A program made the translations under genes and the position numbers. From Thermoplasmatales archaeon SG8-52-3 (lineage in GTDB: Archaea; Thermoplasmatota; E2; DHVEG-1): a DNA stretch of 64,000 nt. Shown here one piece after another: positions 26,762 through 49,056 of the stretch; positions within the stretch are counted from its first letter, which is position 1; the number at the start of each line of letters is the position of its first letter. Location: contig LSSG01000019.1 in assembly GCA_001595915.1 (NCBI GenBank), positions 5,408 through 69,407 on the forward strand, given 5' to 3'. The notes under the pieces are model-generated. The model was not told the origin of the DNA. It saw only the letters and a list, made by a program, of their open reading frames with translations, and did not search any database.

Positions 26762-27898
26762 ATGTCTTTAGATTGGTTGCCAAAAGATGATAAAATAAAG
26801 AACCATGATTTATGGAGTGATGAATATTTTAGTCAAGAACCACCAAGCATTATTTATAAATTAAAACCTGTTGTCGACAATGAGGGAAACAAAGTAAAGG
26901 GTTTGAATTCCGCTTGGATTATACTTAATAATCCTGATCAATACAATTCATATACAACAGATATGGTAAAGGGAGTTATTGCAGGATTTCATAAAGCATC
27001 TATGGATAGAAGTGTAGTTGCAGCAATATTTACTGCAGTTGGAGATAAGGCTTTTTGTACTGGTGGAAACACAAAAGAGTATGCTGAATATTATAGTGGT
27101 AGACCTAATGAATATGGATTATACATGGATCTTTTCAATGCTATGGTTGATTCAATTTTAAATTGTAAAAAACCAACTATATGTCGTGTAAATGGTATGC
27201 GAGTTGCTGGTGGTCAAGAAATAGGTATGGCCTGTGATATTGCAGTATCATCAGACTTAGCAATATATGGTCAAGCTGGACCACGTCATGGCTCTGCACC
27301 TGATGGTGGATCCACTGATTTTCTCCCTTGGATGCTATGTATTGAGGATGCTATGTGGAATTGTATTTCTTGTGAATTATGGTCTGCTTATAAAGCAAAA
27401 AGATTAAGTCTCATTAGCAAAGTTGTTCCTATTTTAAAACAAGATAACAAATTCATAAGAAATCCAACAGTGATAATAGATAAATACATTCAAGACGGAG
27501 AAATTGTTTATGGAGAATTTTTAAAGGGTGAAAAATTTAAAAAAGCCCGTGAAATCATAAAATCAACTCCGACTGATTTTAAACTATTAGACAAAGCTGT
27601 TGACGACATTGTATGGACTTATACAAATCTCATGCCTGGATGTCTTATGAAATCTATAGATGGAATTAGAATGAAAAAGAAGTTTTTCTGGGATCAAACA
27701 AAACTAGCAAATAGACATTGGCTTGCAGCAAATATGGCAACTGAGGCGTTTCTTGGATTCAATGCATTCAATAATAGAAAAACAACTGGAAAAGATGTAA
27801 TTGATTTTGTTAAATACAGACAACTTTTAGCAGAAGGTCATCCATTTGATGATAAACTAAAAGAAGCAGTATTACCAAAACCATTGAAAAAATCCTAA
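26762..27898 (+). CDS. oah: 6-oxocyclohex-1-ene-1-carbonyl-CoA hydrolase (Oah/BamA/BzdY-like ring-cleaving crotonase)
   Basis: This is a 378-aa enlarged crotonase. YNSYTTDMVKGVIAGFHKAS…GDKAFCTGGNTKEYAEYYSGRPNEY…ICRVNGMRVAGGQEIGMACDIAVSSDLAIYGQAGPRHGSAPDGGSTDFLP closely matches my recollection of BamA/Oah sequences. Confidence 0.8.
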   Translation: MSLDWLPKDDKIKNHDLWSDEYFSQEPPSIIYKLKPVVDNEGNKVKGLNSAWIILNNPDQYNSYTTDMVKGVIAGFHKASMDRSVVAAIFTAVGDKAFCTGGNTKEYAEYYSGRPNEYGLYMDLFNAMVDSILNCKKPTICRVNGMRVAGGQEIGMACDIAVSSDLAIYGQAGPRHGSAPDGGSTDFLPWMLCIEDAMWNCISCELWSAYKAKRLSLISKVVPILKQDNKFIRNPTVIIDKYIQDGEIVYGEFLKGEKFKKAREIIKSTPTDFKLLDKAVDDIVWTYTNLMPGCLMKSIDGIRMKKKFFWDQTKLANRHWLAANMATEAFLGFNAFNNRKTTGKDVIDFVKYRQLLAEGHPFDDKLKEAVLPKPLKKS

Positions 27899-27901: not shown

Positions 27902-28321
27902 TTATTGTTTTTCTATTGTATAATAGAGTTTAATTTCAGGTATTTCTTCAAACATCCGAGGTACAACTTTTACCTTCATATTAATCTTGAGATCATTTTC
28001 TGGAATATCTCCAATCCAAGATATCAAGCGCCCACCTTCTTCAAGGTCAACAACTCCCAAAGTATAGGGTGCAATATCTTCAAAACCTTTTGGTGCTGCA
28101 TAAATTTTTGTAAAACTATGAAGTTTACCCCTACCTGAAAATTCAATCCATTGAAAAGTATCACTCATACATTTTAGACAATCTGCACGGGGTGGAAAAT
28201 ACAATTCACCACATATCTTACATTTTGTTCCCATTAGTTTTCCCTTTTGAAGATAATCTGAAAATTTATCCACCTTAGTATACGGTGTAAAATTTATTTT
28301 TCCAAAGTATTTGAAGGGCAT
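27902..28321 (-). CDS. DUF35 Zn-ribbon/OB-fold acyl-CoA-associated protein
   Basis: LMGTKCKICGELYFPPRADCLKCMS (CxxC…CxxC), then an OB-fold region. It lies immediately downstream of an SCP-x-type thiolase. Confidence 0.8.
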   Translation of the reverse strand: MPFKYFGKINFTPYTKVDKFSDYLQKGKLMGTKCKICGELYFPPRADCLKCMSDTFQWIEFSGRGKLHSFTKIYAAPKGFEDIAPYTLGVVDLEEGGRLISWIGDIPENDLKINMKVKVVPRMFEEIPEIKLYYTIEKQ

Positions 28322-28325
28322 AATT

Positions 28326-29477
28326 TCACCTTTTTAGAATATTTACAAAGGTATATTGTCCAATTCCACCAACATTATGTGTAAGACCAATTTCTGCACC
28401 AGAAACTTGTCTTTTTCCTGCCTCCCCTCTTAATTGTTTTACGATTTCAGTAGTCATTGAAACACCTGTTGCACCAACAGGGTGACCCTTAGCTTTCAAA
28501 CCTCCATCTACATTTACTGGGGTTTGACCACCAATGTATGATTGTTTTTCTTCAATGAACTTTCCACCTTTACCTTTATCACAGAAACCAAGATTTTCAT
28601 ATGCCATGATTTCTGCTATTGTAAAACAATCATGAACATCTGCTACAGATATATCAGATGGTTTTACTTTAGCTTGTGAATATGCTTGTTTTGCTGCTTC
28701 TATTGCACTTGGAATTTCAACAAGATTAGGTCTTCTAAGTAGAGACATTTGTGCAGAAGCAGAACCTAATCCCTCAAACCAAATCGGTGTGTCATTGAAT
28801 TTCTTTGCTAGTTTTTCATTTGTTAAAATAACACAAGCCGCACCATCGGCATTAGCACAACAATCAAAGACATTAACAGGAGATGCAACATCATCTGAAC
28901 CAAGTACTCTTTCCTTTGTAACTTCCTTTTGAAAAAATGCATATGGGTTCATTGCACCATAAAAGTGGTTTTTCACAGCAACAAGAGCCATTTGTTCCTT
29001 TGTTGTGCCAAACTCATACATGTGCCTTTTTGCATATAATGCATAATAACCAGGAAATGTAGTTCCAAAAATTGATTCCCATTGAACGTCTCCCACTCTA
29101 CCCATTAAAGCTAAAATTTCCTCTGTAGATAATTCCCTCATTTTTTGCACTCCGATTACTGCAACGATATCATGCATTCCTGATTTAATTGACATATAGG
29201 CTGTTCTAATAGCAGCACTTCCAGATGCACAGGCTGCTTCAGTAAGCCAAGTTGATTTTGGATTCATTCCAACATATTCTGCTACCACTCCAGGTAACGA
29301 ACGCTGCATATGATATTCAGGAACTGATCCAACGATTAATGCATCGATATCTTCTCTTCTAAGATTATTTGCATTTTCTATTGCTTCTTTAAAGGGTTCA
29401 AAAGCTAATTCCTGAACAGTTGCATCACTACGATTTCCAAATTTTCCATGACCTATACCAATAATTCCTACTTTCAA
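28326..29477 (-). CDS. SCP-x/archaeal-type thiolase (DUF35 partner)
   Basis: LTEAACASGSAAIRTAYMSIKSG…DVHDCFTIAEIMAYENLGF…VNVDGGLKAKGHPVGATG. Confidence 0.85.
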   Translation of the reverse strand: MKVGIIGIGHGKFGNRSDATVQELAFEPFKEAIENANNLRREDIDALIVGSVPEYHMQRSLPGVVAEYVGMNPKSTWLTEAACASGSAAIRTAYMSIKSGMHDIVAVIGVQKMRELSTEEILALMGRVGDVQWESIFGTTFPGYYALYAKRHMYEFGTTKEQMALVAVKNHFYGAMNPYAFFQKEVTKERVLGSDDVASPVNVFDCCANADGAACVILTNEKLAKKFNDTPIWFEGLGSASAQMSLLRRPNLVEIPSAIEAAKQAYSQAKVKPSDISVADVHDCFTIAEIMAYENLGFCDKGKGGKFIEEKQSYIGGQTPVNVDGGLKAKGHPVGATGVSMTTEIVKQLRGEAGKRQVSGAEIGLTHNVGGIGQYTFVNILKR

Positions 29478-29492
29478 TATTTCACCAACTAT

Positions 29493-30236
29493 CTAAATGT
29501 ATTGACCACCATCAACCTTAATTACCTCACCTGTTATGTGTCTTGATTTTTCACCACATAAAAAAAGAACTACATTTGCAACGTCTTCTGTAGATGCAAT
29601 CCGGCCCAAAACAGTTTCATCTACTGCCTTTTGAAGAAATTCAGTAGGAATATTTTTTGCCATTTCAGTCATAACCATTCCTGGTGCAACTGCATTTACA
29701 TTAACATTGAATTTACCAAGCTCTTTGGCAAGAGCTTTAGTAAGTGATATTATACCGCCTTTTGAAGCTGAGTAATTGCACTGTCCAAATTTTCCTCTTA
29801 GACCATTGATTGATGTGATATTTACAATTTTTCCAGATCTTTTGTCCTTGAAATATGAAGCTGCTAATTTATTATAAATAAAATAACCCTTAAGATTAAC
29901 GTTAATAACATTATCCCAATCATTTTCACTCATTTTCCAAATTACTCGGTCAATATTTATTCCAGCATTGCAGACAAGGATATCGAGTCCTCCAAACTCC
30001 TCAATTACTTTTTTAAACATTCCTTCTGCATGACTATAATTAGTCACATCTGCCTTAATAATAAGACAAGTCTTCCCAAACTTTTCAATTTTTTTAGCAA
30101 CTTCTTTTGCCTCAGTATCATGTTTACGATAATTAATCGCTACATTAGCACCTTGCCGAGCTAGTTCAACTGCGATGGTTGCACCAATTCCAATGCTTCC
30201 ACCAGTAATAATTGCAGATTTTCCTTCAAACTCCAT
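29493..30236 (-). CDS. Short-chain dehydrogenase/reductase (FabG-like 3-oxo/3-hydroxyacyl reductase)
   Basis: AIITGGSIGIGATIA…NAGI…YSASKGGIISLTKALAKE. ATG at 30236 follows GGAGGAG. The track's 30290 start adds 18 aa with no RBS. Confidence 0.85.
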   Translation of the reverse strand: MEFEGKSAIITGGSIGIGATIAVELARQGANVAINYRKHDTEAKEVAKKIEKFGKTCLIIKADVTNYSHAEGMFKKVIEEFGGLDILVCNAGINIDRVIWKMSENDWDNVINVNLKGYFIYNKLAASYFKDKRSGKIVNITSINGLRGKFGQCNYSASKGGIISLTKALAKELGKFNVNVNAVAPGMVMTEMAKNIPTEFLQKAVDETVLGRIASTEDVANVVLFLCGEKSRHITGEVIKVDGGQYI

Positions 30237-30504: not shown

Positions 30505-31785
30505 ATGAAAAAAACGAAGAAAATATTTATCCATACACATTCATGTAAGTTAAGATATCTTGATGCAACTAGAATATCAAAATATTTTTCTCGAAATAAT
30601 TATAAAATTGTTAATAAACCAAAAGACGCAGATATAATTTTTTTCTTAACTTGTGGGGCATTTGACCATCTTGCAGATGAATCATTACGTATGGTTAAGG
30701 AGTTTCAAAAATATGATGCAGAACTAATTGTTGGTGGTTGCCTACCAGAAATTGAGAAAGAAAAGCTAGGTTCTATTTTTAATGGTAGAATAATTAATAC
30801 AAAAGACTTAGATAAAAACCCTGATAAGATGGATGAACTTTTCCCAGATAATATTGTAAAATTTAGAAATATTGATGATGCAAATGTTTCTTATGCTAAC
30901 TTAAATGAAGGAAATTTTATAGGGGCTTTAAAGCATTTTATTGGAAAAATTGGTTGGTTGGAAAAATTCTTTATTACTATTCAAACCCAAATTTTTAAAT
31001 GTGTTTATGGTAAACATTCTTTTTTCTATAATATTTTGTTAGATGAACCGATGTTTAGAATGAGAATTTCTTGGGGATGTAATAGTAATTGTTCTTATTG
31101 TGGAATAAAAATGGCAATTGGGCCTCATAAAAGCAAACCTATTGAAAAAGTTTTACAGGAATTTAATTCAGGTCTTAAAGAAGGTCAAAAGCATTTTATG
31201 ATGAATGCAGATGATATCGGTGCATATGGGACTGATATTGGCTCTAGTTTTGCAGAATTGTTAGATAAAATGACAAAAATCCCTGGTGATTATTTCATTT
31301 CAATAGCAAATCTAAGTCCACGATGGGTCATTAAATACATTGATTATCTTGAAGAGATAATGAAACGAGAAAAGATTATAAGAATAGGAGTTCCAGTACA
31401 ATCTGGTAGTAATCGGATTTTAAAACTTATGAATCGTTTCAATGATAAAGATAAGATAAAGGATTCTTTATTAAGATTGAAAAAGGTTTTTCCAAAGCTT
31501 TCCATTCATACTCATATTATAGTAGGATTTCCAACTGAAACTGAAGATGAATTTAAACAAACCTTAGCGTTTATTAAGGATTGTAAATTTAGTGCTGGTC
31601 AATTAATGCCTTTTTCATCCAAATCTGGTTCTGATGCTGCAAGTTTAGAACCAAAAATTCCTATGGATGAAATTAACAAAAGGCTGTTATATGCTAGAGA
31701 TTTCTTTAGAAAAGAAGGATACAGTGTAAATTATAAATCAAGAGGTAGAACCTTTTTATTTGATAAACTTGATTACCAATTATAA
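30505..31785 (+). CDS. MiaB/RimO-like radical SAM methylthiotransferase-family protein
   Basis: The UPF0004-type N-domain has three Cys (HTHSCKLRY…FLTCGAF…GGCLPE). The radical SAM motif is WGCNSNCSYCGI. Confidence 0.75.
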   Translation: MKKTKKIFIHTHSCKLRYLDATRISKYFSRNNYKIVNKPKDADIIFFLTCGAFDHLADESLRMVKEFQKYDAELIVGGCLPEIEKEKLGSIFNGRIINTKDLDKNPDKMDELFPDNIVKFRNIDDANVSYANLNEGNFIGALKHFIGKIGWLEKFFITIQTQIFKCVYGKHSFFYNILLDEPMFRMRISWGCNSNCSYCGIKMAIGPHKSKPIEKVLQEFNSGLKEGQKHFMMNADDIGAYGTDIGSSFAELLDKMTKIPGDYFISIANLSPRWVIKYIDYLEEIMKREKIIRIGVPVQSGSNRILKLMNRFNDKDKIKDSLLRLKKVFPKLSIHTHIIVGFPTETEDEFKQTLAFIKDCKFSAGQLMPFSSKSGSDAASLEPKIPMDEINKRLLYARDFFRKEGYSVNYKSRGRTFLFDKLDYQL

Positions 31786-31836
31786 TTAAATTTTTATTCT
31801 ATTATCTATTAAAAGAGAATAAACAAAAATATTTAT

Positions 31837-31869
31837 ATATAGCTTTAATATAGCTATAATATAGCTATG
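31837..31869 (+). repeat. Three tandem 11-nt units (ATATAGCTTTA / ATATAGCTATA / ATATAGCTATG), a candidate operator/promoter array
   Basis: Read directly. The core ATATAGCT recurs with exact 11-bp phasing at 31837, 31848 and 31859. The array ends 8 nt before the ATG at 31878. Confidence 0.6.
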
Positions 31870-31877
31870 GGGTTTTT

Positions 31878-32015
31878 ATGGTAAGTCCATCAAAATTTGA
31901 GGTATATGGTCAAGAAATGCTTGAAAAAATTGTAAAAAAATGCGGTAATAGCGGTCGAATTTATCTTCCACCAGATTGGGTCGATAAAAAAGTCAAGATT
32001 ATCAGGATTGATTGA
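31878..32015 (+). CDS. Tiny AbrB/SpoVT-like (DUF2080-like) DNA-binding protein, 45 aa. It is below the ORF-track cutoff.
   Basis: MVSPSKFEVYGQEMLEKIVKKCGNSGRIYLPPDWVDKKVKIIRID. The GNSxxxYLPxxWxxKKVKI pattern is typical of swapped-hairpin AbrB-type domains. The stop at 32013-32015 abuts or overlaps the possible GNAT starts. Confidence 0.55.
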   Translation: MVSPSKFEVYGQEMLEKIVKKCGNSGRIYLPPDWVDKKVKIIRID

Positions 32016-32026
32016 GGATGATAAAA

Positions 32027-32476
32027 ATGACAGAAATTACTGTAAGACCAATGAATGTAAAAGATATTACTCAGGCAGTAAATATTCATAAGAGAGTTAT
32101 AAGGGAAGGACTTAGTCAAGATTTAGATTATGAAATTACTGAACTTTTTGTTTCTTTTATCAAAAAAACACCTAAAACTTGCTTGGTTGCGGAAATCAAT
32201 AACAATGTAGCAGGTTTTATTATTGGTGTTATAAAAGAGTGGGGATTTGGTGTAGAACGCTCTGGATGGATTGAGATGATAGAAGTTGATCCTAAGATTA
32301 TGGGTAAAGGTGTAGGAAAATCACTAGGTGAAGCTTTGATAAAATATTTTACAGACGAGGGGATTAAAGAAGTTTATACTTCAGTAAAATGGGATAGTGG
32401 AGATTTAATAGCTTTTTTTAAATCTATAGGATTTGATAAGAGCAATTTTATCAATTTAGAATATAAATCAGATTAA
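32027..32476 (+). CDS. GNAT-family acetyltransferase
   Basis: IEMIEVDPKIMGKGVGKSLGEALIKYF…FFKSIGF. Alternative starts are TTG 32012 and ATG 32018. ATG 32027 is best spaced from GAGG (32014-32017). Confidence 0.8.
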   Translation: MTEITVRPMNVKDITQAVNIHKRVIREGLSQDLDYEITELFVSFIKKTPKTCLVAEINNNVAGFIIGVIKEWGFGVERSGWIEMIEVDPKIMGKGVGKSLGEALIKYFTDEGIKEVYTSVKWDSGDLIAFFKSIGFDKSNFINLEYKSD

Positions 32477-32504
32477 ATTTAAAATTAAAAAGGGAGTGAT
32501 ATAA

Positions 32505-33629
32505 TTGATTGAACAATTCAAGCAAATTGAAAAAAATCGACATGATTATGCTAAAGATTGGAAAAAAAAGAAAGATGGAAAGGTATTAGGTTACTTTTGT
32601 ACCTATGTACCTGAAGAGATTTTATATGCTGCTGGAGTGCTACCTGTACGTATTTTAGGTAGTCACGAACCTCAAGATGTAACTGAACCCCACATTTTTG
32701 GTATGTTCTGTCCTTTTTGTAGAGATTGTCTTGCTCAAGGGCTAAAAAACAGATATAAATATCTTGATGGTTTAATGATAGCTCAATCTTGTCTCCATAT
32801 TAGACAGGCTTATACAAGTTGGATTAAGCATAGACCTGTAGATTTTAGTAAATTTCTTTGTATGCCTCATAAGGTACAGAGCCCACATGCATATGAATTC
32901 TTGACTGAAGAATATAAAGTTTTTAAAAAGGAATTGGAGAATTGGACAGGCAATAAAATTACAGACAACGATTTAGACAAAGCTATTGAAGTTTATAATG
33001 AAAATCGCCGTCTTATGAGGAAATTATATGATCTAAGGAAGCGTGATAAACCACCTTTAACAGGTGAACAAGTTATGGAAGTTGTTATGGCAATGCAGAT
33101 GACTGATAAAGCTGAGCATAATAAGATGTTGAAGGAACTTTTAAAAAAAATAGAGAATTATATCCCAGATAGAGAAACAGGTAGTCGATTGATGATACTT
33201 GGTTCTGAGGATGATGACACTGTTTTTATGAATATGGTAGAAGAATCTGGTGCTACCTTTGTGATAGATGATCATTGTACGGGATCAAGATATTTTTGGA
33301 ATGAGGTAGAAGATGGTAAAGATCCATTATCATCAATAGCAGCAAGATATGTAAATAGGATTCCCTGTCCTTCTAAGGATTGGGAAGAACGAAAAAGAAT
33401 TCCTCATATTTTGAACCTTTGTAAAGATTGGAAAGTTGATGGAGTTATAATAATGCAGCAGAAGTTCTGTGATCCGCATGAACTTGATTTTGTAGCAATA
33501 AAGAAAGCATTAGAGGATGCTGGTATACCAACATTATTCTTAGAGTTTGATGTAACTGTGCCAATTGGACAGTTTAAGATTCGTGTTGAAGCATTTCTTG
33601 AAATGATTGGTGAGGAGGATTTATTCTAG
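32505..33629 (+). CDS. bzdN: Benzoyl-CoA reductase class I, gamma-type subunit (BzdN/BcrC-like; HgdB-type fold)
   Basis: [28 protein letters not shown]…[11 protein letters not shown]…[17 protein letters not shown]. It is the first of four tightly linked genes. Confidence 0.7.
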
Positions 33630-33640
33630 GAGGAAAAAAT

Positions 33641-34981
33641 ATGGAACAAGAAGCAATATATCCAACTGAGAAATTGAAATGCTGGAAGAAGGTAAAAGAT
33701 ATTCGAATGAAGTTTTATCAGGATTATGCAGAAGCACATGATAAGGGTGGTCTTCGTTGGGCTGGTGGAGCTTGGACTTTTGATGCGATTCCAGCGGGTT
33801 TAGGAGAAGATGTTTATCCAATAACTAGTGAACCATATAGTGCAACAATTGCTTTTGATAAGGAGCTCTCACTAGAATGTATGGAGGCAACAGAAGTAAA
33901 AGGTTATCCTCGAGATTTATGTTCTTATATGAGAAATTACTGGGGTTCAATTATAACCGATAAATTTGCATTTGGATACAAAGATGGGGAGTTTGTCCCT
34001 AGATTCCAAGGTGCAAAACCTATAGGATTTCCAAAACCAGATTTCATCTGGCAGGATCATATTTGTTGTTCACATGCCAAATGGTATCAGGTCGTATCAG
34101 ATCTTGAAGGTGGAATTCCTATGTTTACGGTTGATAATGCTGTTGGACCTTCTAATGAACTTACAGATAGTAAAATAAAATATGTTGTAGAACAATTGAA
34201 AGATGGAATAAAGTTTTTGGAAAAAACAACTGGTAGGGATTATGATGATGAACTGATGTTCAAGGCAATTAAGAATCATTTTGTTTCAACTTCTAAATGG
34301 GCAGAGTCGTGTGCATTAAATAAAGCCATACCTGCTCCACTAGATGAAAAAACTATTTATTCACTTTATGTTCTTGGAACTCTTCAAAAAGCTGGTAAGC
34401 AGGTTGCAGATTTTTATGAAAAAGACCTTCTTCCAGAAGTAAAAGATCGGGTCAAAAGAGGAATTGCTGCGGTTCCTAATGAACGTGTACGTGTGATGTC
34501 TGATACTCAACCTCCATGGAGTTTTTTAAGTATATTTAGATATTTAGAAAAATTTGGATGTGTCAGTGTTGGTTCATTATACACTTTTGGTTTGATTGGC
34601 CAATGGGAGGTAAAAAAAGATGGAACCTGGGGTGCCAAAAAAATTCCAGATGTTGAATTTACAAGCAGAGATCAGGCACTCTATGAATATGTTAAATATG
34701 AATTACATAAACCTGAATGGCAGCATTTCTATTCATGTCATCTGAAGAGTGATATGATGATTCGAATAGCAAAAGAATGGAAACTTAATGGAGTAATGCT
34801 TCATTACAACAGAGGTTGTGAGGGACTTACTGTTGGAATTGCTGAAAATAGACTAGCTTTACTTGATGCTGGATTTCCAGTAATGGCATTTGAAGGAAAT
34901 AATGCAGATGAAAGAGAGTTTGATGAGGCTAGAACTAAGGCAAAAATTAATGCATTTATGGAGACGCTTGGAGTAAAATGA
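33641..34981 (+). CDS. bzdO: Benzoyl-CoA reductase class I, beta-type subunit (BzdO/BcrB-like; HgdA-type fold)
   Basis: It is 446 aa. [38 protein letters not shown]…[12 protein letters not shown]…[22 protein letters not shown] lies upstream. Confidence 0.7.
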
Positions 34982-34994
34982 GGAGGCATTTAAT

Positions 34995-35774
34995 ATGATA
35001 ACCATGGGTATTGATTTAGGTGCAAAAAATATTAAGGTAGTGATTTTGAAAGATAATAAGATAATTGGAAAATCAAATGTTCTCGCAGGATTTGATGTAG
35101 AAAAAAGCGCCCAGCAAGCAATTGATAAAGCTCTCAAAGAAGCAGGTATCACGAAGGATAAAATAGAAAAGACAATATCTACAGGAGCTGGAGATAAACT
35201 TGCTCCATTTTATGATGAGATCAAGTCGATTGTTGGATGTGATTCATTAGGAGCTGTATTTCTTCACCCTGCTGCAAGAAGTGTTATTGATGTAGGTGCT
35301 GAAGAAGGAAGAGGTATGAGATGTGATGAGACCGGAAAAATTATAGATTTTGAGGTAAATGAAAAATGTGCTGCAGGAGCAGGAGCCTTTACTGAGGCTA
35401 TGTCTCGCGCACTTGAGGTAAAACTTGAAGAAATTGGCCCTCTTTCTTTGAAAGCTACAGAAGATATTCCAATGAATGCACAGTGTACAGTGTTTGCAGA
35501 ATCAGAGGTTGTAACAATGGTACATAACAAAGTTTCAAAGGCAAATATGGCTAAAGCAGTTCATGATGCAATGGCAAGCAGGATTACATCAATGGTTAGA
35601 AAGATAGGCTTTAACAAAGATGTAGTTCTTGTTGGAGGAGTAGCAAATAACATTGGTTTTGTTGATTCTCTTAATAAAGATCTTGACCTTAAAGTTGTGA
35701 TACCAAAAGATCCAGAGTTTGTTGGAGCTTTAGGTGCTGCACTTGCTGCAGCTGGTTGGAAGGGAGGTAAATAA
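34995..35774 (+). CDS. bzdP: Benzoyl-CoA reductase ATPase subunit, delta-type (BzdP/BcrD-like; BcrAD_BadFG family)
   Basis: MGIDLGAKNIKVVIL…IDVGAEEGRGMRCDETGKIIDFEVNEKCAAGAGAF…AQCTVFAESEV…LVGGVANN. Confidence 0.75.
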   Translation: MITMGIDLGAKNIKVVILKDNKIIGKSNVLAGFDVEKSAQQAIDKALKEAGITKDKIEKTISTGAGDKLAPFYDEIKSIVGCDSLGAVFLHPAARSVIDVGAEEGRGMRCDETGKIIDFEVNEKCAAGAGAFTEAMSRALEVKLEEIGPLSLKATEDIPMNAQCTVFAESEVVTMVHNKVSKANMAKAVHDAMASRITSMVRKIGFNKDVVLVGGVANNIGFVDSLNKDLDLKVVIPKDPEFVGALGAALAAAGWKGGK

Positions 35775-35775
35775 T

Positions 35776-36648
35776 ATGGAAGAAAAAGCTGAACTTTGGA
35801 GATGGACAGAATCTCGTTGGACGAATACTGACCTAAATTGGAAAGGAAAATTGATTACTTCTGGAGTTGATGTAGGTTCAGTTAGTTCACAGGCTGTAAT
35901 ACTTGCTGATGGAGAGCTCTATGCTTATTCTAATATGAGAACTGGTTCTGATAGTCCTGATTCTGCTATGAAGGCAATAAACTGGGCTATGGAAGATACA
36001 GGTCTTAAATTGGATGATTTAACCTATACTGTTGGTACTGGATATGGTCGAGTTAATGTTCCATTTAGTCAACGAGCCATTACAGAAATTGCTTGTCATG
36101 CTCGTGGTGGTAACTTCATGTATGGGCCTTCAGTTAGAACAATTTTGGATATGGGTGGTCAGGATTGTAAAGCTATTCATTGTGATGAAAGAGGAAAGGT
36201 TACAAATTTTCTAATGAACGATAAATGTGCGGCGGGAACAGGACGAGGAATGGAAGTATTTGCCGATCTTTTGGGTGTATCTATTAATGACGTTGGAGAT
36301 CTTTCTCTTGATGTTGATGAGGAACCACAGCCAGTAAGTAGTACTTGCGTAGTATATGCAAAAACCGAGGCTACAGGTTTACTTAGAGAAGGTTGGCCAA
36401 AGAATAAAGTTTTAGCAGCATATTGTTCAGCAATGGCTCATAGGATAATGACACTACTAGAAAGAATTGGTGTTGAGGAAGATTTTGCAATAACAGGTGG
36501 AATAGCAAAGAATAAAGGGGTAGTTACAAGACTTGAGAAAGAGGTTGGAATAAAAATCATGAAGACCACAGATTATGATACACAAATTGCAGGAGCCCTT
36601 GGTGCAGCACTTTTTGCTAAAGCTTTAGTTGAGAAAGGGAAAAAATAA
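35776..36648 (+). CDS. bzdQ: Benzoyl-CoA reductase ATPase subunit, alpha-type (BzdQ/BcrA-like; BcrAD_BadFG family)
   Basis: ATG 35776 follows GGGAGGT and lies 1 nt after the preceding stop. SGVDVGSVSSQAVIL…LDMGGQDCKAIHCDERGKVTNFLMNDKCAAGTGRG…SSTCVVYAKTE…ITGGIAKN. Confidence 0.75.
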   Translation: MEEKAELWRWTESRWTNTDLNWKGKLITSGVDVGSVSSQAVILADGELYAYSNMRTGSDSPDSAMKAINWAMEDTGLKLDDLTYTVGTGYGRVNVPFSQRAITEIACHARGGNFMYGPSVRTILDMGGQDCKAIHCDERGKVTNFLMNDKCAAGTGRGMEVFADLLGVSINDVGDLSLDVDEEPQPVSSTCVVYAKTEATGLLREGWPKNKVLAAYCSAMAHRIMTLLERIGVEEDFAITGGIAKNKGVVTRLEKEVGIKIMKTTDYDTQIAGALGAALFAKALVEKGKK

Positions 36649-36663
36649 ATTTGAGGAATTTTC

Positions 36664-36951
36664 ATGATAGCAAATTATGGATATAAGGATGGTTCTGGGG
36701 ACTATTTCATTGCAATTGATACTGACAAATGTAATGGATGTAAGGATTGTATTGATGCTTGTCCATATGGAGTATTGGATGTTGGTCCTGATGAAAACGA
36801 TCCTCTATCTGATGAAGAGGTAGCATTTGTAACAGAAGCCGAAAGAAAAAAGATAAAATACACCTGTGCTCCTTGTAAACCAATGAACAATAGACCACCT
36901 TTACCATGTATGGCTGTATGTAAAAAAGAAGCAATTTCACATTCCTGGTGA
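36664..36951 (+). CDS. Ferredoxin (2x[4Fe-4S]-type with insertion), the putative electron donor to the reductase (BzdM/Fdx-like)
   Basis: CNGCKDCIDACPYG … CAPCKP…C…VCKKEAI. Its position directly after the reductase genes is the main argument. Confidence 0.65.
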   Translation: MIANYGYKDGSGDYFIAIDTDKCNGCKDCIDACPYGVLDVGPDENDPLSDEEVAFVTEAERKKIKYTCAPCKPMNNRPPLPCMAVCKKEAISHSW

Positions 36952-37001
36952 GATTATTTGGAAATAATTCCTCCAATCTTATTCGAAAATCGAGGTTTAT
37001 T

Positions 37002-39515
37002 ATGAGTGTAACTATAAATATCAATGGCAACAAGATTAAAGCCGAAGATGGGATGTCGATCTTAGAAGCTGCTCAAATTAATGAGATATATATCCCAAGG
37101 CTTTGTTATCATCCTAGTTTAGGTAGTTCACATGGTTTGAAACCTATAGATACAATTTACAGAGAGGATGGTAAATATCAGAATGATGATACAGGGCCAA
37201 AAGAAGGATTTAAGGGATGTCAACTCTGTCTTGTTGAGATAAATGGCCATGAAGGTCTATTTACCTCATGTGATACTATTGTTGAAGATGGGATGATTGT
37301 AAATTCTGAAACTGATGTGGTTAAGGAAGCACGTAGAAATAATCTTGCAGAGATATTAAAAGATCACCCTCATGCATGTCTTCAATGTGCTCAACAGGAT
37401 GGCTGTTCAAGAACAGATTGTTCAACAAATGTTCCTGAAAGTGAAAGATGCTGTCCATTATTAGGACATTGTGAGCTTCAAAAGATTGCACAATATATAG
37501 GTATCAGACAGGATCTATCGAAATATGTATTTAAAGGCCTTCCTAAGCATAAAAATGAACCCCTCTTTGAGAGTGATTATAATTTATGTGTTTCTTGTTT
37601 AAGATGTGTACGAGCTTGTCGTGAATTAAGAGGTGTTGAGGCTATAGGATTCGTATTTAACAAAGAAAAGACCATTGTTGGACCATCAAAAAATTCAAAT
37701 TTTAAAGAGTCAGACTGCAGGTTCTGTGGTGCTTGTGTCGAAGTTTGTCCTACAGGAGCAATGAGTGATAAAAATCTACCGAAAGGAGAAAAGGAAGAAG
37801 TCTTAGTTCCCTGCATTTCTAATTGCCCCGTTTGTTTGGATATTCCTAGATATATCAATCTTATTAATGAAGGAAATTATAATGATGCTGTTGCTGTAAT
37901 AAGAGAAAGAATTCCATTTCCTAAAATATTAGGACAAGTATGTTTCCATCCTTGTGAGGATAAATGTCGTAGAGGTGAATTAGATCAACCAATGGCAATA
38001 TGTGCTTTAAAAAGGTTCGCAGCTGAAAATGAGGATGATTCCTTCAAAATTAAAGGAAGAGAACCTACTGGAAAAAAGGTTGCTATTGTTGGGAGTGGCC
38101 CATCAGGGCTTACAGCAGCATATTATCTTGCATTATCTGGACATAGTGTTACTATTTTTGAAGCAGAGGAAAAGATTGGTGGTTTGTTAAGATATGCTAT
38201 CCCTAATTACCGTTTGAATCCTGATTTATTAGATGCGGAAATGGAAATTTTTAATGAGTTGAATGTTGAATTTAGAATTAATACACAAATCGGGAATAAA
38301 ATAACCTTATCTGATCTTTGTAAAGATTTTCAAGCTGTCTTTATAGGTACTGGTGCTTGGCTAAGTAAAAAAATTTCTGTTGAAGGTTCAAATCTTCAAG
38401 GGGTGGAATGGGGTTTAGATTTTTTAATGAATGTTAAAAAGAATAATGTGAAATCATTAAATGGTCAAGTATTTGTTATTGGTGGTGGAAATGTTGCAAT
38501 GGATGTTGCAAGAACCGCAATTCGACTAGGTGCAAGCATTGTTCAACTTGCTTGTTTAGAATGTAGGGAAGAAATGCCAGCACATGATTGGGAAATAAAA
38601 GATGCTATGGATGAAGGAGTTAAAATGCATTCATCCTGGGGCCCTAAGAAAATTCTTGAAAAAAATGGAAAAATATCAGGAATTGAACTAATCAAATGTA
38701 ATTCTGTATTTGATAAAAGAGGCAATTTTGATCCAAAATTTGATTCTTGCGAAACTAAAAATATTGATACTGATAAAATTATTTTAGCAATTGGACAAGT
38801 ACCAAATCTCTCTTGGATGAAGGGAATTGATACAAAAAACGGGATGATAAAAATTAACAAAGATATGCAAACGAATATATCAAATGTTTTTGCAGGAGGG
38901 GAGGTTACAAGAGGTCCTGCATCTGTTGTAGAGGCTATAGCTGATGGAGCAACAGCTGCTTCATCAATTGATAGACTTCTTGGCGGTGACGGAAACATTT
39001 ATAAGAAGATTATGTCGCCATATGAATTTAATCCATGTATTGGTAAAATTGATGGTTTTGCAGATATGGTTAGAATGATTGTTAAAAAAGTAAGTCCTAT
39101 TGATAGAATAGATAATTTTAATATGGTTGAGACTTGCTATAATGAAAAACAAGCAAAACAAGAATCGATACGCTGTCTAAGATGTGATTTACGCTTAAAA
39201 ATACTTCCAATTACATTTCCCCCAGATAGATGGCTCGAATTAAACAATAATAATATTGCAGAAGTTCCAGCTGTGGAAGGAGTGTACCAGCTTAGGGATG
39301 AAAATAAAGTTATAATAGTAATAAAAGGCACTCAAAATATTAAAGCAGACCTACAGCAAAAGCTTAAATCTGATACCAAAGCAAGATATTTCTGGTTTGA
39401 GCCTGATCCTATGTATACAAAACGGGAAAGTGAATTGATACAACAGTTCCTACAACAATTTGGGAAGATGCCAGAAGGTGATGGGGAGGGTGATGATATT
39501 GATGACCTCTTCTAA
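37002..39515 (+). CDS. Multidomain Fe-S flavoprotein, a putative NAD(P)H:ferredoxin oxidoreductase (BzdV-like role). Domains are a 2Fe-2S (NuoG-like) N-terminus, 4Fe-4S domains, a GltD-like FAD/NAD(P) oxidoreductase and an about 110-aa uncharacterised acidic tail.
   Basis: VTININGNKIKAEDGMSILEAA…GCQLCLVEI…DHPHACLQCAQQDGC…CVSCLRCVRAC…CRFCGACVEVCPTGA…VAIVGSGPSGLTAAYYL…GGLLRYAIPNYRL…VIGGGNVAMDVART. ATG 37002 follows GAGGT. Confidence 0.75.
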   Translation: MSVTININGNKIKAEDGMSILEAAQINEIYIPRLCYHPSLGSSHGLKPIDTIYREDGKYQNDDTGPKEGFKGCQLCLVEINGHEGLFTSCDTIVEDGMIVNSETDVVKEARRNNLAEILKDHPHACLQCAQQDGCSRTDCSTNVPESERCCPLLGHCELQKIAQYIGIRQDLSKYVFKGLPKHKNEPLFESDYNLCVSCLRCVRACRELRGVEAIGFVFNKEKTIVGPSKNSNFKESDCRFCGACVEVCPTGAMSDKNLPKGEKEEVLVPCISNCPVCLDIPRYINLINEGNYNDAVAVIRERIPFPKILGQVCFHPCEDKCRRGELDQPMAICALKRFAAENEDDSFKIKGREPTGKKVAIVGSGPSGLTAAYYLALSGHSVTIFEAEEKIGGLLRYAIPNYRLNPDLLDAEMEIFNELNVEFRINTQIGNKITLSDLCKDFQAVFIGTGAWLSKKISVEGSNLQGVEWGLDFLMNVKKNNVKSLNGQVFVIGGGNVAMDVARTAIRLGASIVQLACLECREEMPAHDWEIKDAMDEGVKMHSSWGPKKILEKNGKISGIELIKCNSVFDKRGNFDPKFDSCETKNIDTDKIILAIGQVPNLSWMKGIDTKNGMIKINKDMQTNISNVFAGGEVTRGPASVVEAIADGATAASSIDRLLGGDGNIYKKIMSPYEFNPCIGKIDGFADMVRMIVKKVSPIDRIDNFNMVETCYNEKQAKQESIRCLRCDLRLKILPITFPPDRWLELNNNNIAEVPAVEGVYQLRDENKVIIVIKGTQNIKADLQQKLKSDTKARYFWFEPDPMYTKRESELIQQFLQQFGKMPEGDGEGDDIDDLF

Positions 39516-40140
39516 ACTAAAAGTTGAAATATTGGTAGTTGGACCATTATTTTCAAATTGTTATATTGTGTGGGATGAAAAAACAAAAGAAGGAGCAGTA
39601 ATTGATCCTGGCGATGATTCAATTTCTATCTTAAAAACTGTTGAAAAACTTGATATTAATATTAAATATATCTTAGCTACACATGGTCATTTTGATCATG
39701 TTGGTGCTGTTGCACCGTTAAGAAGAGAACTAAAAGCTGAATTTCTTGCTCATAAAGGTGATTTCTTTTTTATTGAAGATGGAGAAAATGCAGCTAGACG
39801 CTGGGGAATTAATATTGAACAGCCTCCAAGTCCTGATAGATTTATAGAAAACGGCGATAAGATAGAAATTGGAAATTTTCATTTAGAGGTAATCCATACT
39901 CCAGGTCATTCACCTGGCGGTATAAGTTTTTTATATGATAAAATGTTATTCGGAGGAGATACTCTTTTTCAAGGAAGTATAGGTAGAACAGATTTTCGAA
40001 AGGGCTCATTTGAGGAAATATCTGAATCTATTAAAACACGTCTTTACACATTACCTGATGATACTATTGTTTATACAGGCCATGGACCAATAACTACAAT
40101 TGGTGATGAAAAAAAATATAATGCATTTGTTAGAGCATGA
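39502..40140 (+). CDS. MBL-fold metallo-hydrolase (glyoxalase II-like)
   Basis: ILATHGHFDHVGA (HxHxDH) …HTPGHSPGG…GDTLF. ATG 39502 is best spaced from GGAGGGTGA, and the gene overlaps the end of the preceding gene. Confidence 0.85.
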   Translation: MTSSKLKVEILVVGPLFSNCYIVWDEKTKEGAVIDPGDDSISILKTVEKLDINIKYILATHGHFDHVGAVAPLRRELKAEFLAHKGDFFFIEDGENAARRWGINIEQPPSPDRFIENGDKIEIGNFHLEVIHTPGHSPGGISFLYDKMLFGGDTLFQGSIGRTDFRKGSFEEISESIKTRLYTLPDDTIVYTGHGPITTIGDEKKYNAFVRA

Positions 40141-40143
40141 TTT

Positions 40144-40875
40144 ATGGATAAGTTAATTTCTAAACTTAAGAAATTTGTTTCAGTATCTGATCAAATTGTA
40201 GCATTTACAGGTGCTGGTTTTTCAGCTGAAAGCGGGATTTCCACATTTAGAGGAGCAGGTGGTCTTTGGTCTAAATATGACCCATCAATCTATGCAGATA
40301 TTAATTATTTTAATCAGGATCCTACTTATTATTGGAACTTTTTTAAGGATGAGCGATATCCAGTAATTAAAAAAGCTAAACCAAATGATGGGCACTATGC
40401 TTTAGTAAAGCTTGAAAAACGAGGAAAGATTTTTCGAATAATAACACAAAATATTGATGGTCTGCATCAATTAGCAGGGTCTTCAAATGTAATTGAACTT
40501 CATGGTAATACTCGAAATATATTTTGTAGAAAATGTAATAAAAAATATTCCTTGGATGAAGTTTATACTATTTTAAAAAAAGAGTTACCACCTAGGTGTT
40601 CATGCGGTGGACTTTTAAAACCAAGTACAGTTCTTTTTGGTGAACCTTTACCCCAAGTCGCTCTTGATATGGCAAATATATCAGCTCGAAATTGTGATTT
40701 GTTTTTAGTTCTTGGTAGTTCCTTGGTTGTTTATCCTGCTGCATCTTTTCCAGAAATTGCTAAAAATAATGGTGCAAAATTAGTAATAGTTAATATTGAT
40801 CCTACTCCTTTAGATGATATTGCTGATATAGTTATAAACGAGAGCACATCAAAGGTTCTTTCTGAATTAATTTAA
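40144..40875 (+). CDS. Sir2-family NAD-dependent protein deacylase
   Basis: FTGAGFSAESGISTFRG…ITQNIDGLHQLAGS…ELHGN…CRKC…CSCGGLLKPSTVLFGE. Confidence 0.9.
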   Translation: MDKLISKLKKFVSVSDQIVAFTGAGFSAESGISTFRGAGGLWSKYDPSIYADINYFNQDPTYYWNFFKDERYPVIKKAKPNDGHYALVKLEKRGKIFRIITQNIDGLHQLAGSSNVIELHGNTRNIFCRKCNKKYSLDEVYTILKKELPPRCSCGGLLKPSTVLFGEPLPQVALDMANISARNCDLFLVLGSSLVVYPAASFPEIAKNNGAKLVIVNIDPTPLDDIADIVINESTSKVLSELI

Positions 40876-40955
40876 ATTTATAAGCGATAGTTTTATAGAA
40901 AAATTTTTATTAAATCAGATTACTATATATTACTAATAATGGGAGAGTAATTATT

Positions 40956-41879
40956 ATGAAAAAAGCAATTGTCGGTATAATAATTTTTATGCTAATGATA
41001 GTATGTTCAATTTTTAGCAGTGCTGATATTTTAGGAAATGTTAAAACAACAAAAAATAATCTTATAGTTTTGGAAAAAGATTCTGTACTGCAATTAGATA
41101 AATTTTCTAATTATCAGACTGATCTTGATTGGGATTATACTAGTAATCCACCACATATGTATACAATTCCGTTAGGAAAAGTTGGAATTGGTACAACAAA
41201 TCCATCAGCAAAGCTTGATGTTGAGGTAAATAATGGTGGTGCAGCAACGATAGGCTCTAGTTATAATATTGCAATTGGAGACTATGCTGTAGCATTAGGT
41301 TATGCTGCAAAAGCAATAGGAAATTATTCTATTGCAATGGGTAGATATACAAATGCAAGTGGGCTTACTGCAACTGCATTAGGATGGGGAACATCTGCAA
41401 AGGGCAGTTGCTCAACTGCAATGGGCGAAGGTACTACTGCAAGTGGAAGCTTTTCAACTGCAATGGGGCGAAGTATAAAAGTAAATGGAGATTATTCATT
41501 TGGAATTGGTTTAAGTTCAAAATCATATTCTATAGATTCTGATAATGTGCTTTCAATTATGGGTGGAAAAGTTGGTATTGGTACAGCTGATCCTTCTTAC
41601 TTATTGGATGTTTTTAGTGACAATGATATAGTAGCTCAGTTTTCTGGTAGGGTAAAGGGAGTTGATGCAATATATGATGATGAATTTGTAACCAAAGGAC
41701 AAGTCAAAACCAGTCTTCCATCATATTTTACACCATATGGTACAAGTGATCCTACTGGAATTGAGGGGGATATATCTTGGGATAGCAACTATTTCTATCT
41801 TAAAACAAGTGAAGGTTGGAAAAGGGCAAAATTGGAAACTTGGGGCTCAACATCTGTTGTTTTAGAAAATAACCCTTAA
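40956..41879 (+). CDS. Exported adhesin/tail-fibre-like repeat protein (YadA-head/Hep_Hag-like repeats)
   Basis: It has a signal/anchor at the N-terminus. GKVGIGTTNPSAKLDV and GKVGIGTADPSYLLDV flank SIAMGRYTNASGLTATALGWGTSAKGSCSTAMGEGTTASGSFSTAMGRS. Confidence 0.6.
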   Translation: MKKAIVGIIIFMLMIVCSIFSSADILGNVKTTKNNLIVLEKDSVLQLDKFSNYQTDLDWDYTSNPPHMYTIPLGKVGIGTTNPSAKLDVEVNNGGAATIGSSYNIAIGDYAVALGYAAKAIGNYSIAMGRYTNASGLTATALGWGTSAKGSCSTAMGEGTTASGSFSTAMGRSIKVNGDYSFGIGLSSKSYSIDSDNVLSIMGGKVGIGTADPSYLLDVFSDNDIVAQFSGRVKGVDAIYDDEFVTKGQVKTSLPSYFTPYGTSDPTGIEGDISWDSNYFYLKTSEGWKRAKLETWGSTSVVLENNP

Positions 41880-48089: not shown

Positions 48090-48544
48090 AATATCTTTAT
48101 GTATATCCTGAGAAATGCACTGGGTGTAGAGAATGCTCTATTGCATGTTCACTTAGCAAATTTGGAGAATGTAACCCTAAGAAAGCAGCTATTACTATTG
48201 TAAGAGATGAATTCAATAGATATGAGTTTCCAATAATTTGCTTTCAATGCGAAGATCCAGTATGCTTAAAGTTCTGCCATCAGAATGCATATCAAATAAA
48301 AAATGGAATAGTTATTAGAGATAAAGATAAGTGTATCGGATGCAGACTTTGTGCAACATTATGTCCTTATAATTCTATTACTTCTATTGATGATGAGATT
48401 ATAAAATGTGATCTATGTGAGGGAGACCCTAAATGTGTAAAATATTGTTCTACAGGTGCAATTCAATACCTTGATGAAACAGAAGAGCTTGAAAAAAGAC
48501 GTAAAAAAATGACAGAGAAATTTTTAGAGATTAATAAAAAATAG
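48086..48544 (+). CDS. 4Fe-4S polyferredoxin-type electron-transfer subunit (AOR-associated)
   Basis: There is a 4-nt overlap with aor. CTGCRECSIAC…CFQCEDPVCLKFC…CIGCRLCATLCPY…CDLCEGDPKCVKYC. Confidence 0.85.
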   Translation: MKYLYVYPEKCTGCRECSIACSLSKFGECNPKKAAITIVRDEFNRYEFPIICFQCEDPVCLKFCHQNAYQIKNGIVIRDKDKCIGCRLCATLCPYNSITSIDDEIIKCDLCEGDPKCVKYCSTGAIQYLDETEELEKRRKKMTEKFLEINKK

Positions 48545-48654
48545 ATAAGAACTTTTTTTATTTTCAATTTTTTAAAATTGGAGTATGTTTGTACTATAAA
48601 GTTTATATACTAAATTTTTAGAAGATTATATATAGAATATAAAAAAAGATTAAA

Positions 48655-49032: not shown

Positions 49033-49056
49033 ATAATTATTTTTTGGTCAATAATT

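Follow-up and report, generated by a model that had tools for sequence, protein, structure and literature searches.

Does the run of six genes at positions 32505-39515 of this stretch of DNA encode a genuine benzoyl-CoA reductase (BCR), and if so of which type, with which electron donor and for which substrate? The stretch (hereafter, the window) comprises 64,000 nucleotides of contig LSSG01000019.1 (positions 5,408 to 69,407, forward strand; assembly GCA_001595915.1) of Thermoplasmatales archaeon SG8-52-3. The genes very probably make up a complete Bzd-type class I BCR operon with its own ferredoxin and its own iron-sulphur (Fe-S) flavoprotein. Family calls were made with the curated equivalog models of NCBIfam, reading bit scores against curated cut-offs, and through comparison with all solved structures, whereas synteny and functional residues were assessed by comparing the window with 80 related loci (labelled L001 and so on); counts of invariant residues refer to 71 loci for BzdP and BzdQ, 67 for the ferredoxin and 55 for the flavoprotein. 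The six genes, with protein lengths in amino acids (aa), are the following.

32505-33629, plus strand: bzdN, gamma subunit, 374 aa, TTG start
33641-34981, plus strand: bzdO, beta (catalytic) subunit, 446 aa
34995-35774, plus strand: bzdP-type ATPase gene, delta subunit, 259 aa
35776-36648, plus strand: bzdQ, alpha subunit, 290 aa from ATG (the longest reading frame, from GTG at 35734, gives 304 aa)
36664-36951, plus strand: operon ferredoxin gene in the BzdM position, 95 aa
37002-39515, plus strand: Fe-S flavoprotein gene in the BzdV position, 837 aa from ATG (the longest reading frame, from GTG at 36948, gives 855 aa)

A first-pass annotation of this DNA had described six tightly linked plus-strand genes separated by 1-50 nucleotides, in an order parallel to bzdNOPQ-bzdM of Azoarcus/Aromatoleum. 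Open reading frames (ORFs), sizes and gaps (11, 13, 1, 15 and 50 nucleotides, in order) all bear this description out, as do the N-O-P-Q order, the ferredoxin that follows it and the matching sizes; independent gene calls on two public contigs with an identical BzdO give the same six lengths. The genes are presumably co-transcribed. The two Pfam families that the annotation had proposed to search were each found twice and in the expected proteins, HGD-D in those of 374 and 446 aa (E 1.6e-93 and 4e-39) and BcrAD_BadFG in those of 259 and 290 aa (E 2.3e-50 and 7e-55). Domain E-values across the operon run from 1e-39 to 1e-185, so that chance matches are out of the question.

Membership of these families is shared with the 2-hydroxyacyl-CoA dehydratases (HADs) of the Hgd/Had/Fld/Lcd type, and a dehydratase with its activator, serving amino-acid fermentation, has to be weighed as well, since MBG-D archaea (Marine Benthic Group D) ferment protein and amino acids (PMC6461988). 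The scores of the catalytic subunits argue against it. BzdO reaches 614.7 bits with TIGR03191 (cut-off 448.6) and BzdN 469.5 bits with TIGR03190 (cut-off 453.8, a narrow margin), whereas the HadB model gives BzdO 138.7 bits out of the 750 required and the HadC model gives BzdN 211.3 out of 700; the double-cubane reductase model also stays below its cut-off for BzdN (222 against 350). Among solved structures, BzdO is closest to the BzdO of PDB 8S02_A (586 bits, versus 106 for HadB and 43 for MbdO) and BzdN to the BzdN of 8S02_B (450 bits, versus 179 for HadC, 140 for MbdN and 107 for DCCP). Thus, by model and structure scores alike, the catalytic subunits do not fall with the dehydratases, the placement that the first-pass annotation had named as fatal to its own proposal.

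A reading as the Thauera type or the 3-methylbenzoyl-CoA reductase (MBR) type was also tried and rejected: the BcrC model gives BzdN 158.6 bits against 421, BcrB does not match BzdO, and for the ATPases the BcrA model (tried on the 290-aa BzdQ) gives 151.6 against 578 and BcrD 149.2 against 313. The Thauera-type BcrABCD and the MBR-type MbdONQP (PDB 9G87, 9GAI) share with the operon the reaction class and the combination of a catalytic dimer with an ATPase heterodimer, but they are distant in sequence, and they form permanent heterotetramers where a transient complex has been predicted for the Bzd type (PMC11971306).

A closer view is offered by the functional residues of BzdNO, as defined for the crystal structure of the Aromatoleum sp. 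CIB enzyme (Fuchs et al. 2025, PMC11971306) and mapped here onto the window and the 80 loci. The window's BzdO shares 61% identity with its crystallised counterpart, and its BzdN 53%. BzdO keeps the cluster ligands Cys94, Cys142 and Cys393 (reference Cys95/128/380), the proposed proton donors Glu64 and His145 (Glu65/His131), the thioester-binding residues Tyr96, Tyr314 and Gln290 (Tyr97/Tyr298/Gln274) and the ring-lining residues Trp45, Leu318 and Leu396 (Trp46/Leu302/Leu383). Both the window and 80 of the 80 loci have this whole set of cluster, acid-base and thioester/ring residues, and BzdO is predicted to be the catalytic subunit, with an aqua-[4Fe-4S] cluster and a benzoyl-CoA site. In the case of BzdN, Cys32, 69, 72, 96, 258, 288 and 322, Arg49, 262 and 285, His325, Ser234 and Gln319 match reference residues; the seven conserved cysteines include six candidate ligands of an [8Fe-9S] double-cubane cluster, and all four charged-shell residues of the reference (Arg53, Arg267, Arg290, His330) are kept. 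BzdN is accordingly predicted, from its residues, to be the electron-storage subunit carrying that cluster. As the dehydratases have lost the double cubane (PMC11971306), its residues in BzdN, the full cysteine set together with the Arg/His shell, count as a positive BCR character.

The only mapped differences between this BzdO and that of Aromatoleum are S44G and T125D. Both are common to 80 of the 80 loci, so that they mark the strict-anaerobe branch of the family and not this particular genome. In addition, the BzdO proteins of the MBG-D-like clade (L001-L015), and only these, carry an insertion of 15-17 aa at residues ~113-128, directly before the segment with the cluster ligand Cys142 and with His145; the BzdO of Aromatoleum, of Asgard archaea, of bacteria and of other Thermoplasmatota lacks it. 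These changes could be taken as signs of a Bzd-like aryl- or alicyclic-CoA reductase acting on a substituted benzoyl-CoA or on a partly reduced bicyclic CoA ester, comparable to the tetrahydronaphthoyl-CoA reductases of N47 and NaphS2. Ser44 of the reference, the only structurally characterised enzyme, lies 3.6-4.0 Å from ring carbon C3, and in N47, NaphS2 and TRIP_1 the clusters annotated as 'bzd-type', next to which a 'BzdV protein' is encoded, are used to reduce tetrahydronaphthoyl-CoA (PMC6849830). Nevertheless, such a substrate seems very improbable, given that the remaining ring- and thioester-lining residues are identical to those of Aromatoleum BzdO, that 61% identity and a BzdO equivalog cut-off that is passed argue for the same function, and that Oah, a hydrolase specific for the monocyclic 6-oxocyclohexenoyl-CoA, is linked to the operon and co-conserved with it.

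The first-pass annotation had also drawn attention to two different ATPases, each with an N(E/D)KCAAG(A/T)G motif and a second cysteine, and both parts of that observation hold. BzdP and BzdQ are only 33% identical to each other, and each has the cysteines of a bridging cluster, NEKCAAGAG (Cys125) with Cys164 in BzdP and NDKCAAGTG (Cys151) with Cys191 in BzdQ, all of them invariant in the 71 loci. BzdQ passes TIGR03192 (436 bits, cut-off 380.2), has a canonical phosphate-2 motif (DMGGQD) and finds its best solved-structure matches in MbdQ (204 bits) and HadI (192 bits). BzdP is the less typical partner. It scores 212 bits with the generic activase model TIGR00241 and passes no equivalog cut-off; no BzdP-specific model was among those used, so that its orthology to Aromatoleum BzdP rests on synteny, the place between bzdO and bzdQ being kept in all loci at 48-95% identity. 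Its phosphate-1 motif reads GAK (GIDLGAKNIK, residues 5-14) where relatives have GST (G-x-D-x-G-S-T), and its phosphate-2 motif DVGAEEG (IDVGAEEGR, residues 97-107) where relatives have DIGGQD; HadI, HgdC, MbdQ, MbdP and BzdQ all carry DxGGQ(D/T) and GST, unlike BzdP, which thus diverges from all its solved relatives. GAEEG is invariant in 71 bzd loci, and among 150 representatives (50% clustering) the nearest relatives of BzdP are nearly all of the GAE type, the remoter activases having GGQD, which makes the motif a trait of the BzdP subfamily and not of this genome. Fusions of BzdP with BzdQ, of 571-604 aa, also exist.

The ATPases complete the case on the dehydratases. The best solved-structure match of BzdP is the HadI activator, as would suit an enzyme of that kind, and HadBC with HadI (PDB 3O3M, 4EHT) belong to the same BCR/HAD radical enzyme superfamily; they too combine an ASKHA ATPase, whose cluster is a bridging one, with a catalytic subunit that has an aqua-[4Fe-4S] cluster. 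Those proteins, however, have no double cubane, rely on a single homodimeric activator and use ATP catalytically rather than stoichiometrically, and the window has two distinct ATPase genes instead of one activator gene. With model scores, double-cubane residues and the pair of ATPases taken together, the dehydratase reading is effectively refuted and its probability can be put next to nil. The Bzd-type class I identity put forward in the first-pass annotation is, on the other hand, supported by the BzdN, BzdO and BzdQ models, the structure matches, the residues and the synteny.

What would feed such a reductase with electrons? The 95-aa protein matches Fer4-family and 4Fe-4S dicluster models of Pfam, as expected of a 2x[4Fe-4S] ferredoxin, and its cysteines 23, 26, 29, 33, 68, 71, 82 and 86 (CxxCxxCxxxC plus CxxCx10CxxxC) are invariant in 67 loci; in related loci its gene always comes after bzdQ. 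The comparison with solved structures returned no close relative of this ferredoxin. The 837-aa protein combines, in Pfam terms, Fer2_4, an Nqo3-type Fer4, Fer4_20 and Pyr_redox_2 domains with a C-terminal DUF7508. Its GltD-like part (~270-730) is closest to 9BOV_A (412 bits), StnC of 8OH5_C (377 bits) and NfnB of 4YLF_B (232 bits), with 5JCA_L also among the matches, and its N-terminal part is similar to the 2Fe-2S/4Fe-4S module found in NuoG, HydA and formate dehydrogenases. Conservation extends to the Rossmann motifs for FAD and NAD(P)H and, in all 55 loci, to 28 cysteines that fall into a [2Fe-2S] set of four, an HxxxCxxCx5C motif, Cys140/150/151/157, two CxxCxxCxxxC motifs, a GltD-type set and a C-terminal CxxC. 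Two stretches of this protein are not covered by domain models: the extra Cys140/150/151/157 group (residues 135-157), which follows the NuoG N5-like HxxxCxxCx5C, and an insertion of ~37 residues within the 2Fe-2S motif (Cys35...Cys73). The protein therefore joins modules known from the NADPH-FAD subunits NfnB and StnC (PDB 4YLF, 5JCA, 8OH5) and from the N-terminal Fe-S parts of NuoG and HydA, from which it differs in having neither an NfnA-like second flavoprotein nor a hydrogenase or formate dehydrogenase catalytic domain, and in its additional cysteine group and DUF7508.

Position and domain content make a BzdV-type label for this protein plausible, its public names being generic ('FAD-dependent oxidoreductase' or 'hypothetical'), and most likely it links NAD(P)H to the operon ferredoxin. 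The direction of that link is a matter of some doubt. NAD(P)H to ferredoxin is an endergonic, uphill transfer, and the flavoprotein may not be the donor. Since its module is moreover NfnB-like, a role in balancing redox pools or in bifurcation is a serious alternative to a simple BCR-feeding reductase: the ferredoxin would be reduced by 2-oxoacid:ferredoxin or aldehyde:ferredoxin oxidoreductases, and the flavoprotein would pass electrons on to NAD(P)+ or act, with a partner, as an NfnB-like bi- or confurcating enzyme. The nearest relatives of its GltD-like part are bifurcating NADPH-FAD modules (StnC, NfnB), an aldehyde:ferredoxin oxidoreductase with its own Fe-S and FAD partners is encoded 7 kb downstream, and peptide-fermenting MBG-D archaea have been described as rich in ferredoxin-reducing oxidoreductases (PMC6461988). 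Against this, the gene is strictly co-conserved right after the ferredoxin gene, which it follows in most loci (~55, in several phyla), arguing for a dedicated partnership; neither a second flavin domain nor a second NAD domain can be made out in the 837 aa; and BzdV, in the equivalent position in Azoarcus/Aromatoleum, has been read as a putative NADPH:ferredoxin oxidoreductase (PMC5658619), the name 'BzdV protein' having been given to apparent orthologues in Hermodarchaeota (PMC8163825) and TRIP_1 (PMC6849830). On balance, the alternative is the less likely of the two, although it deserves to be kept in mind.

The mechanism proposed for the benzoyl-CoA reductase takes the homologous proteins, crystallised BzdNO and the HAD activators, as its guide and builds on the gene content, family membership, residue conservation and synteny of the operon, from which we infer the substrate, the ATP coupling, the electron path and the direction of the flavoprotein. 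Electrons from NAD(P)H would enter the flavoprotein at its FAD and travel through two [4Fe-4S] clusters, the NuoG-type cluster chain and the [2Fe-2S] cluster to the ferredoxin. The latter would deliver them at low potential to the [4Fe-4S] cluster bridging the BzdP-BzdQ heterodimer, whose potential would be lowered by ATP binding and hydrolysis, so that electrons could pass to the [8Fe-9S] double cubane of BzdN and on to the aqua-[4Fe-4S] cluster of BzdO (Cys94/142/393). There, a hydrogen atom from the cluster-bound water would be transferred to C4 of benzoyl-CoA, a second electron would follow and Glu64, assisted by His145, would protonate the ring, so that cyclohexa-1,5-diene-1-carbonyl-CoA would be formed. 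What is said of ATP dependence and stoichiometry is carried over from the Thauera-type enzymes, because a Bzd-type holoenzyme has never been isolated, nor assayed in any organism (PMC11971306).

The dienoyl-CoA would then have to be hydrated, oxidized and opened, and genes for these steps are to be sought upstream of the operon.

24673-25440, minus strand: crotonase-family hydratase, candidate Dch (ECH_1, E 3e-54)
25455-26627, minus strand: Zn-dependent alcohol dehydrogenase, candidate Had (ADH_N and ADH_zinc_N)
26762-27898, plus strand: Oah (TIGR03200, 571.2 bits against a cut-off of 464.45, passed)
27902-30236, minus strand: DUF35 OB-fold protein, thiolase and FabG-like short-chain dehydrogenase/reductase (SDR), candidates for 3-hydroxypimelyl-CoA oxidation and thiolysis

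The first-pass annotation had placed a dch/had/oah trio ~5 kb upstream, of which Oah stands by its score and the other two by context only. Oah lies 4.6 kb from the operon and is found near the bzd operon in 10 Thermoplasmatota loci. The candidate Dch shares 54-56% identity with the hydratase encoded next to bzdN in Asgard operons, the assignment of Had rests on its conserved adjacency to the crotonase and Oah, and in the MBG-D clade the two candidates are conserved along with Oah and the bzd genes. Hydration by the candidate Dch, oxidation by the candidate Had and ring opening by Oah would lead to 3-hydroxypimelyl-CoA, which could be processed through the neighbouring SDR/thiolase/DUF35 set, a trio that travels with the bzd operon in Thermoplasmatota loci and in some of Aminicenantes and Acidobacteriota, and through the beta-oxidation genes at 14772-22180, which encode two acyl-CoA dehydrogenases, a thiolase and a hydroxyacyl-CoA dehydrogenase fused to a hydratase.

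Several points weigh against a benzoyl-CoA reductase operon with its pathway around it. BzdP passes no specific model and departs from all solved relatives in both phosphate motifs, S44G in BzdO adjoins ring carbon C3, and the flavoprotein, for the thermodynamic reason given above, may not be the electron donor. The candidate Dch reaches 157.3 bits with TIGR03189 (cut-off 292.5) and the candidate Had 107 bits with TIGR03201 (cut-off 338.65). Neither of the AMP-forming ligases in the window reaches the benzoate-CoA ligase cut-off (the 541-aa ligase has 305 bits against 375), so that the entry step of the pathway is not in view. To these may be added the lack of any isolated Bzd-type holoenzyme, the Bzd-like enzymes of naphthalene degraders, which reduce tetrahydronaphthoyl-CoA and not benzoyl-CoA (PMC6849830), and the energetic awkwardness of an ATP-consuming BCR in an energy-limited fermenter (PMC6472368).

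Regarding the host, the first-pass annotation had deduced an AT-rich and probably archaeal genome, and the window, with a G+C fraction of ~0.31, indeed belongs to the Thermoplasmatota. The flavoprotein matches, at 100% identity, KYK34020.1 from Thermoplasmatales archaeon SG8-52-3, a metagenome-assembled genome (MAG) from the White Oak River estuary that has been assigned to MBG-D/Thermoprofundales (PMC6461988), and the nearest relatives among species-representative genomes are all Thermoplasmatota MAGs, with BzdO 82-96% identical. The synteny comparison that the annotation had suggested finds the cassette conserved across the 80 loci and several phyla. In the form GNAT-bzdN-O-P-Q-ferredoxin-flavoprotein it is conserved in 15 Thermoplasmatota loci, and cassettes with BzdO 65-70% identical occur in Loki-, Hermod-, Hod-, Heimdall- and Odinarchaeota as well as in Planctomycetota, Acidobacteriota/Aminicenantes, Gemmatimonadota and Firmicutes. 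In a neighbour-joining BzdO tree, built without bootstraps and with Aromatoleum as the outgroup, the MBG-D sequences group together as one clade borne on a long stem and three other Thermoplasmatota/euryarchaeal sequences (L030, L053, L073) fall elsewhere, a picture compatible with repeated horizontal transfer. A tblastn search with BzdO for an annotated proteobacterial bzd cluster, including BzdP, BzdM and BzdV, in a plasmid collection gave no match.

The best-known counterpart of this cassette is BzdNOPQ-BzdM-BzdV of Aromatoleum (Azoarcus) sp. CIB (PDB 8S02, 8S1T, 8S2R; PMC11971306), which it resembles in gene order, sizes, cluster ligands and the Glu/His pair. Besides the sequence distance, the two BzdO substitutions and the insertion of the MBG-D clade, the differences are that Aromatoleum is a denitrifying betaproteobacterium and the host of the window a strictly anaerobic archaeon, that in the window the flavoprotein gene comes directly after the ferredoxin gene, and that a GNAT gene and a 45-aa ORF lie upstream. 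The operons of Asgard (Hermod-, Loki-, Hod-, Heimdall- and Odinarchaeota) and other Thermoplasmatota MAGs (PMC8163825, PMC9239135, PMC6472368) have the same cassette, including a flavoprotein of 825-850 aa that is ~50% identical, with BzdO at 65-70%, and some of them share the 45-aa ORF and the GNAT gene. Unlike the window, most Asgard loci have hydratase, dehydrogenase and hydrolase genes directly upstream of bzdN, of different subtypes: their hydrolase and dehydrogenase are each ~30% identical to Oah and the candidate Had of the window, and their BzdO does not have the insertion.

How exceptional is an archaeal enzyme of this kind? To our knowledge, the biochemistry and physiology of archaeal class I BCRs are essentially confined to Ferroglobus placidus, whose BCR is specifically of the Azoarcus type. 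The likeness to the window lies in an archaeal class I BCR within a strict anaerobe (PMC6472368), Ferroglobus being, for its part, a hyperthermophilic iron reducer. The rarity claimed in the first-pass annotation holds for that biochemistry but not for the genes, which have already been published in several archaeal lineages and annotated publicly. A class I BCR with oah, dch and had was reported in 2019 from Thermoplasmata MAGs, together with the energetic puzzle it poses (PMC6472368); genomic and transcript evidence in Thermoprofundales is credited to Liu et al. 2020 in PMC10581246; BCR genes followed in 2021 for Loki- and Hermodarchaeota, the latter with ferredoxin and BzdV neighbours (PMC8163825), and in 2022 for Yaplasmales (PMC9239135). 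Public databases name such proteins 'benzoyl-CoA reductase subunit B' (JGI) and 'benzoyl-CoA reductase, bzd-type, subunit O [Thermoplasmata archaeon]' (NCBI). Being already annotated and published for this lineage and for other archaea, the operon is a sound but ordinary finding, and what the window adds is a residue-level confirmation against the 2025 BzdNO crystal structure and not a discovery. Minor new observations are the 45-aa ORF, a candidate operator, the BzdO insertion and the ATP motifs of BzdP.

The first two of these lie in the flanks of the cassette, where the following features were found.

31831-31867, plus strand: candidate archaeal promoter/operator, with three direct ATATAGCT repeats that come after a TATA-like TTTATATA
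31878-32015, plus strand: 45-aa ORF with which the cassette opens (gene call in L081)
32018-32476, plus strand: GNAT-family acetyltransferase, 152 aa (Pfam Acetyltransf_1, E 2.5e-13), 28 nucleotides before bzdN
39493-40140, plus strand: metallo-beta-lactamase-fold hydrolase, 215 aa (Lactamase_B, E 5e-32), overlapping the end of the flavoprotein gene
40144-40875, plus strand: Sir2-family deacylase (SIR2, E 2.4e-49), last co-directional gene

The ATATAGCT repeats start at 31837, 31848 and 31859, with a period of 11 bp and a palindromic core ATAGCTAT. As a single motif, ATRTAGCTA is not significant in the window (2 found against 1.4 expected), so that the weight of the motif comes only from its tandem arrangement, of which this is the only site in the window (0.32 expected by chance), and from its conservation across loci, with two to three related (A/T)ATRTAG(C/T)T repeats at the corresponding place upstream of the operon in each of L001-L015, L053 and L073. 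Together with the TATA-like box, they make a candidate promoter/operator. A scan of 31700-41000 for promoters and terminators of the bacterial type gave nothing above chance, with a model that is not applicable to an archaeon. The 45-aa ORF is the immediate upstream neighbour of GNAT-bzdN in 16 Thermoplasmatota/euryarchaeal loci (77-91% identity) and 6 Asgard loci (53-57%), and its weak similarity to Pfam DUF2080 (19.9 bits, under the cut-off of 21.5) and to MazE-AbrB-like proteins suggests a possible small DNA-binding protein, which with the ATATAGCT operator may constitute an undescribed archaeal regulator of aromatic catabolism.

Among the other flanking genes, a GNAT gene stands before bzdN in loci of Thermoplasmatota, Heimdall/Hod/Hermod, Aminicenantes and Eubacteriales, the metallo-beta-lactamase-fold hydrolase is kept downstream in most Thermoplasmatota loci and the Sir2-family deacylase in L001, L002, L004, L013 and L014. 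The co-directional run thus opens with an acetyltransferase and closes with a deacylase, both conserved in several related loci, a pair reminiscent of the acetylation and deacetylation by which aryl-CoA ligases are controlled in Rhodopseudomonas palustris.

Further from the operon, the first 12 kb of the window (352-11847) encode an Hsp20, two rubrerythrins, a hybrid-cluster (prismane) protein with an Fe-S partner, nitroreductases, a hemerythrin and a fusion of ferredoxin:thioredoxin reductase with rubredoxin, an oxidative/nitrosative-stress block that is typical of a strict anaerobe and fits one here. The aldehyde:ferredoxin oxidoreductase mentioned above (609 aa) is part of a set at 46260-50298 with a 152-aa poly-4Fe-4S protein after it and a 413-aa FAD/NAD(P) oxidoreductase on the opposite strand. 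We take this set to resemble the three-subunit AorABC aldehyde oxidoreductase of aromatic-degrading bacteria, and it could be a source of reduced ferredoxin. A second gene set of the BCR/HAD family, at 52855-60989, has a single HGD-D subunit (399 aa; 253 bits against 750 for HadB, 167 against 487 for BcrB), three paralogous B12-binding radical SAM proteins (476-482 aa), one further radical SAM protein and, on the divergent strand, a third BcrAD_BadFG ATPase of 260 aa with a canonical activase domain (221 bits); it is no recognisable dehydratase or BCR. Scans of the window for tRNAs and Rfam families found nothing, and the taxonomic placement accordingly draws on protein matches.

A last question is what a Bzd-type operon means for archaea of this kind. 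From a practical point of view, the window offers a candidate from a mesophilic archaeon with which a complete Bzd-type enzyme might be reconstituted for the first time, something so far achieved for no organism. The presence of a class I BCR in energy-limited archaea of anaerobic sediments bears on the turnover of buried aromatic carbon (lignin, protein residues, petroleum), and also on how such cells afford a dearomatisation that consumes ATP. One improbable answer would be that the Bzd-type reductase of strict anaerobes is a cheaper enzyme, in which BzdPQ spends less than 2 ATP per two electrons, a figure suggested by the altered nucleotide site of BzdP (DVGAEEG, GAK) that is invariant in the clade, and in which the NfnB-like module bifurcates electrons to ferredoxin. 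If true, fewer ATP and flavin-based bifurcation would explain the occurrence of an 'ATP-dependent' BCR in energy-limited fermenters.

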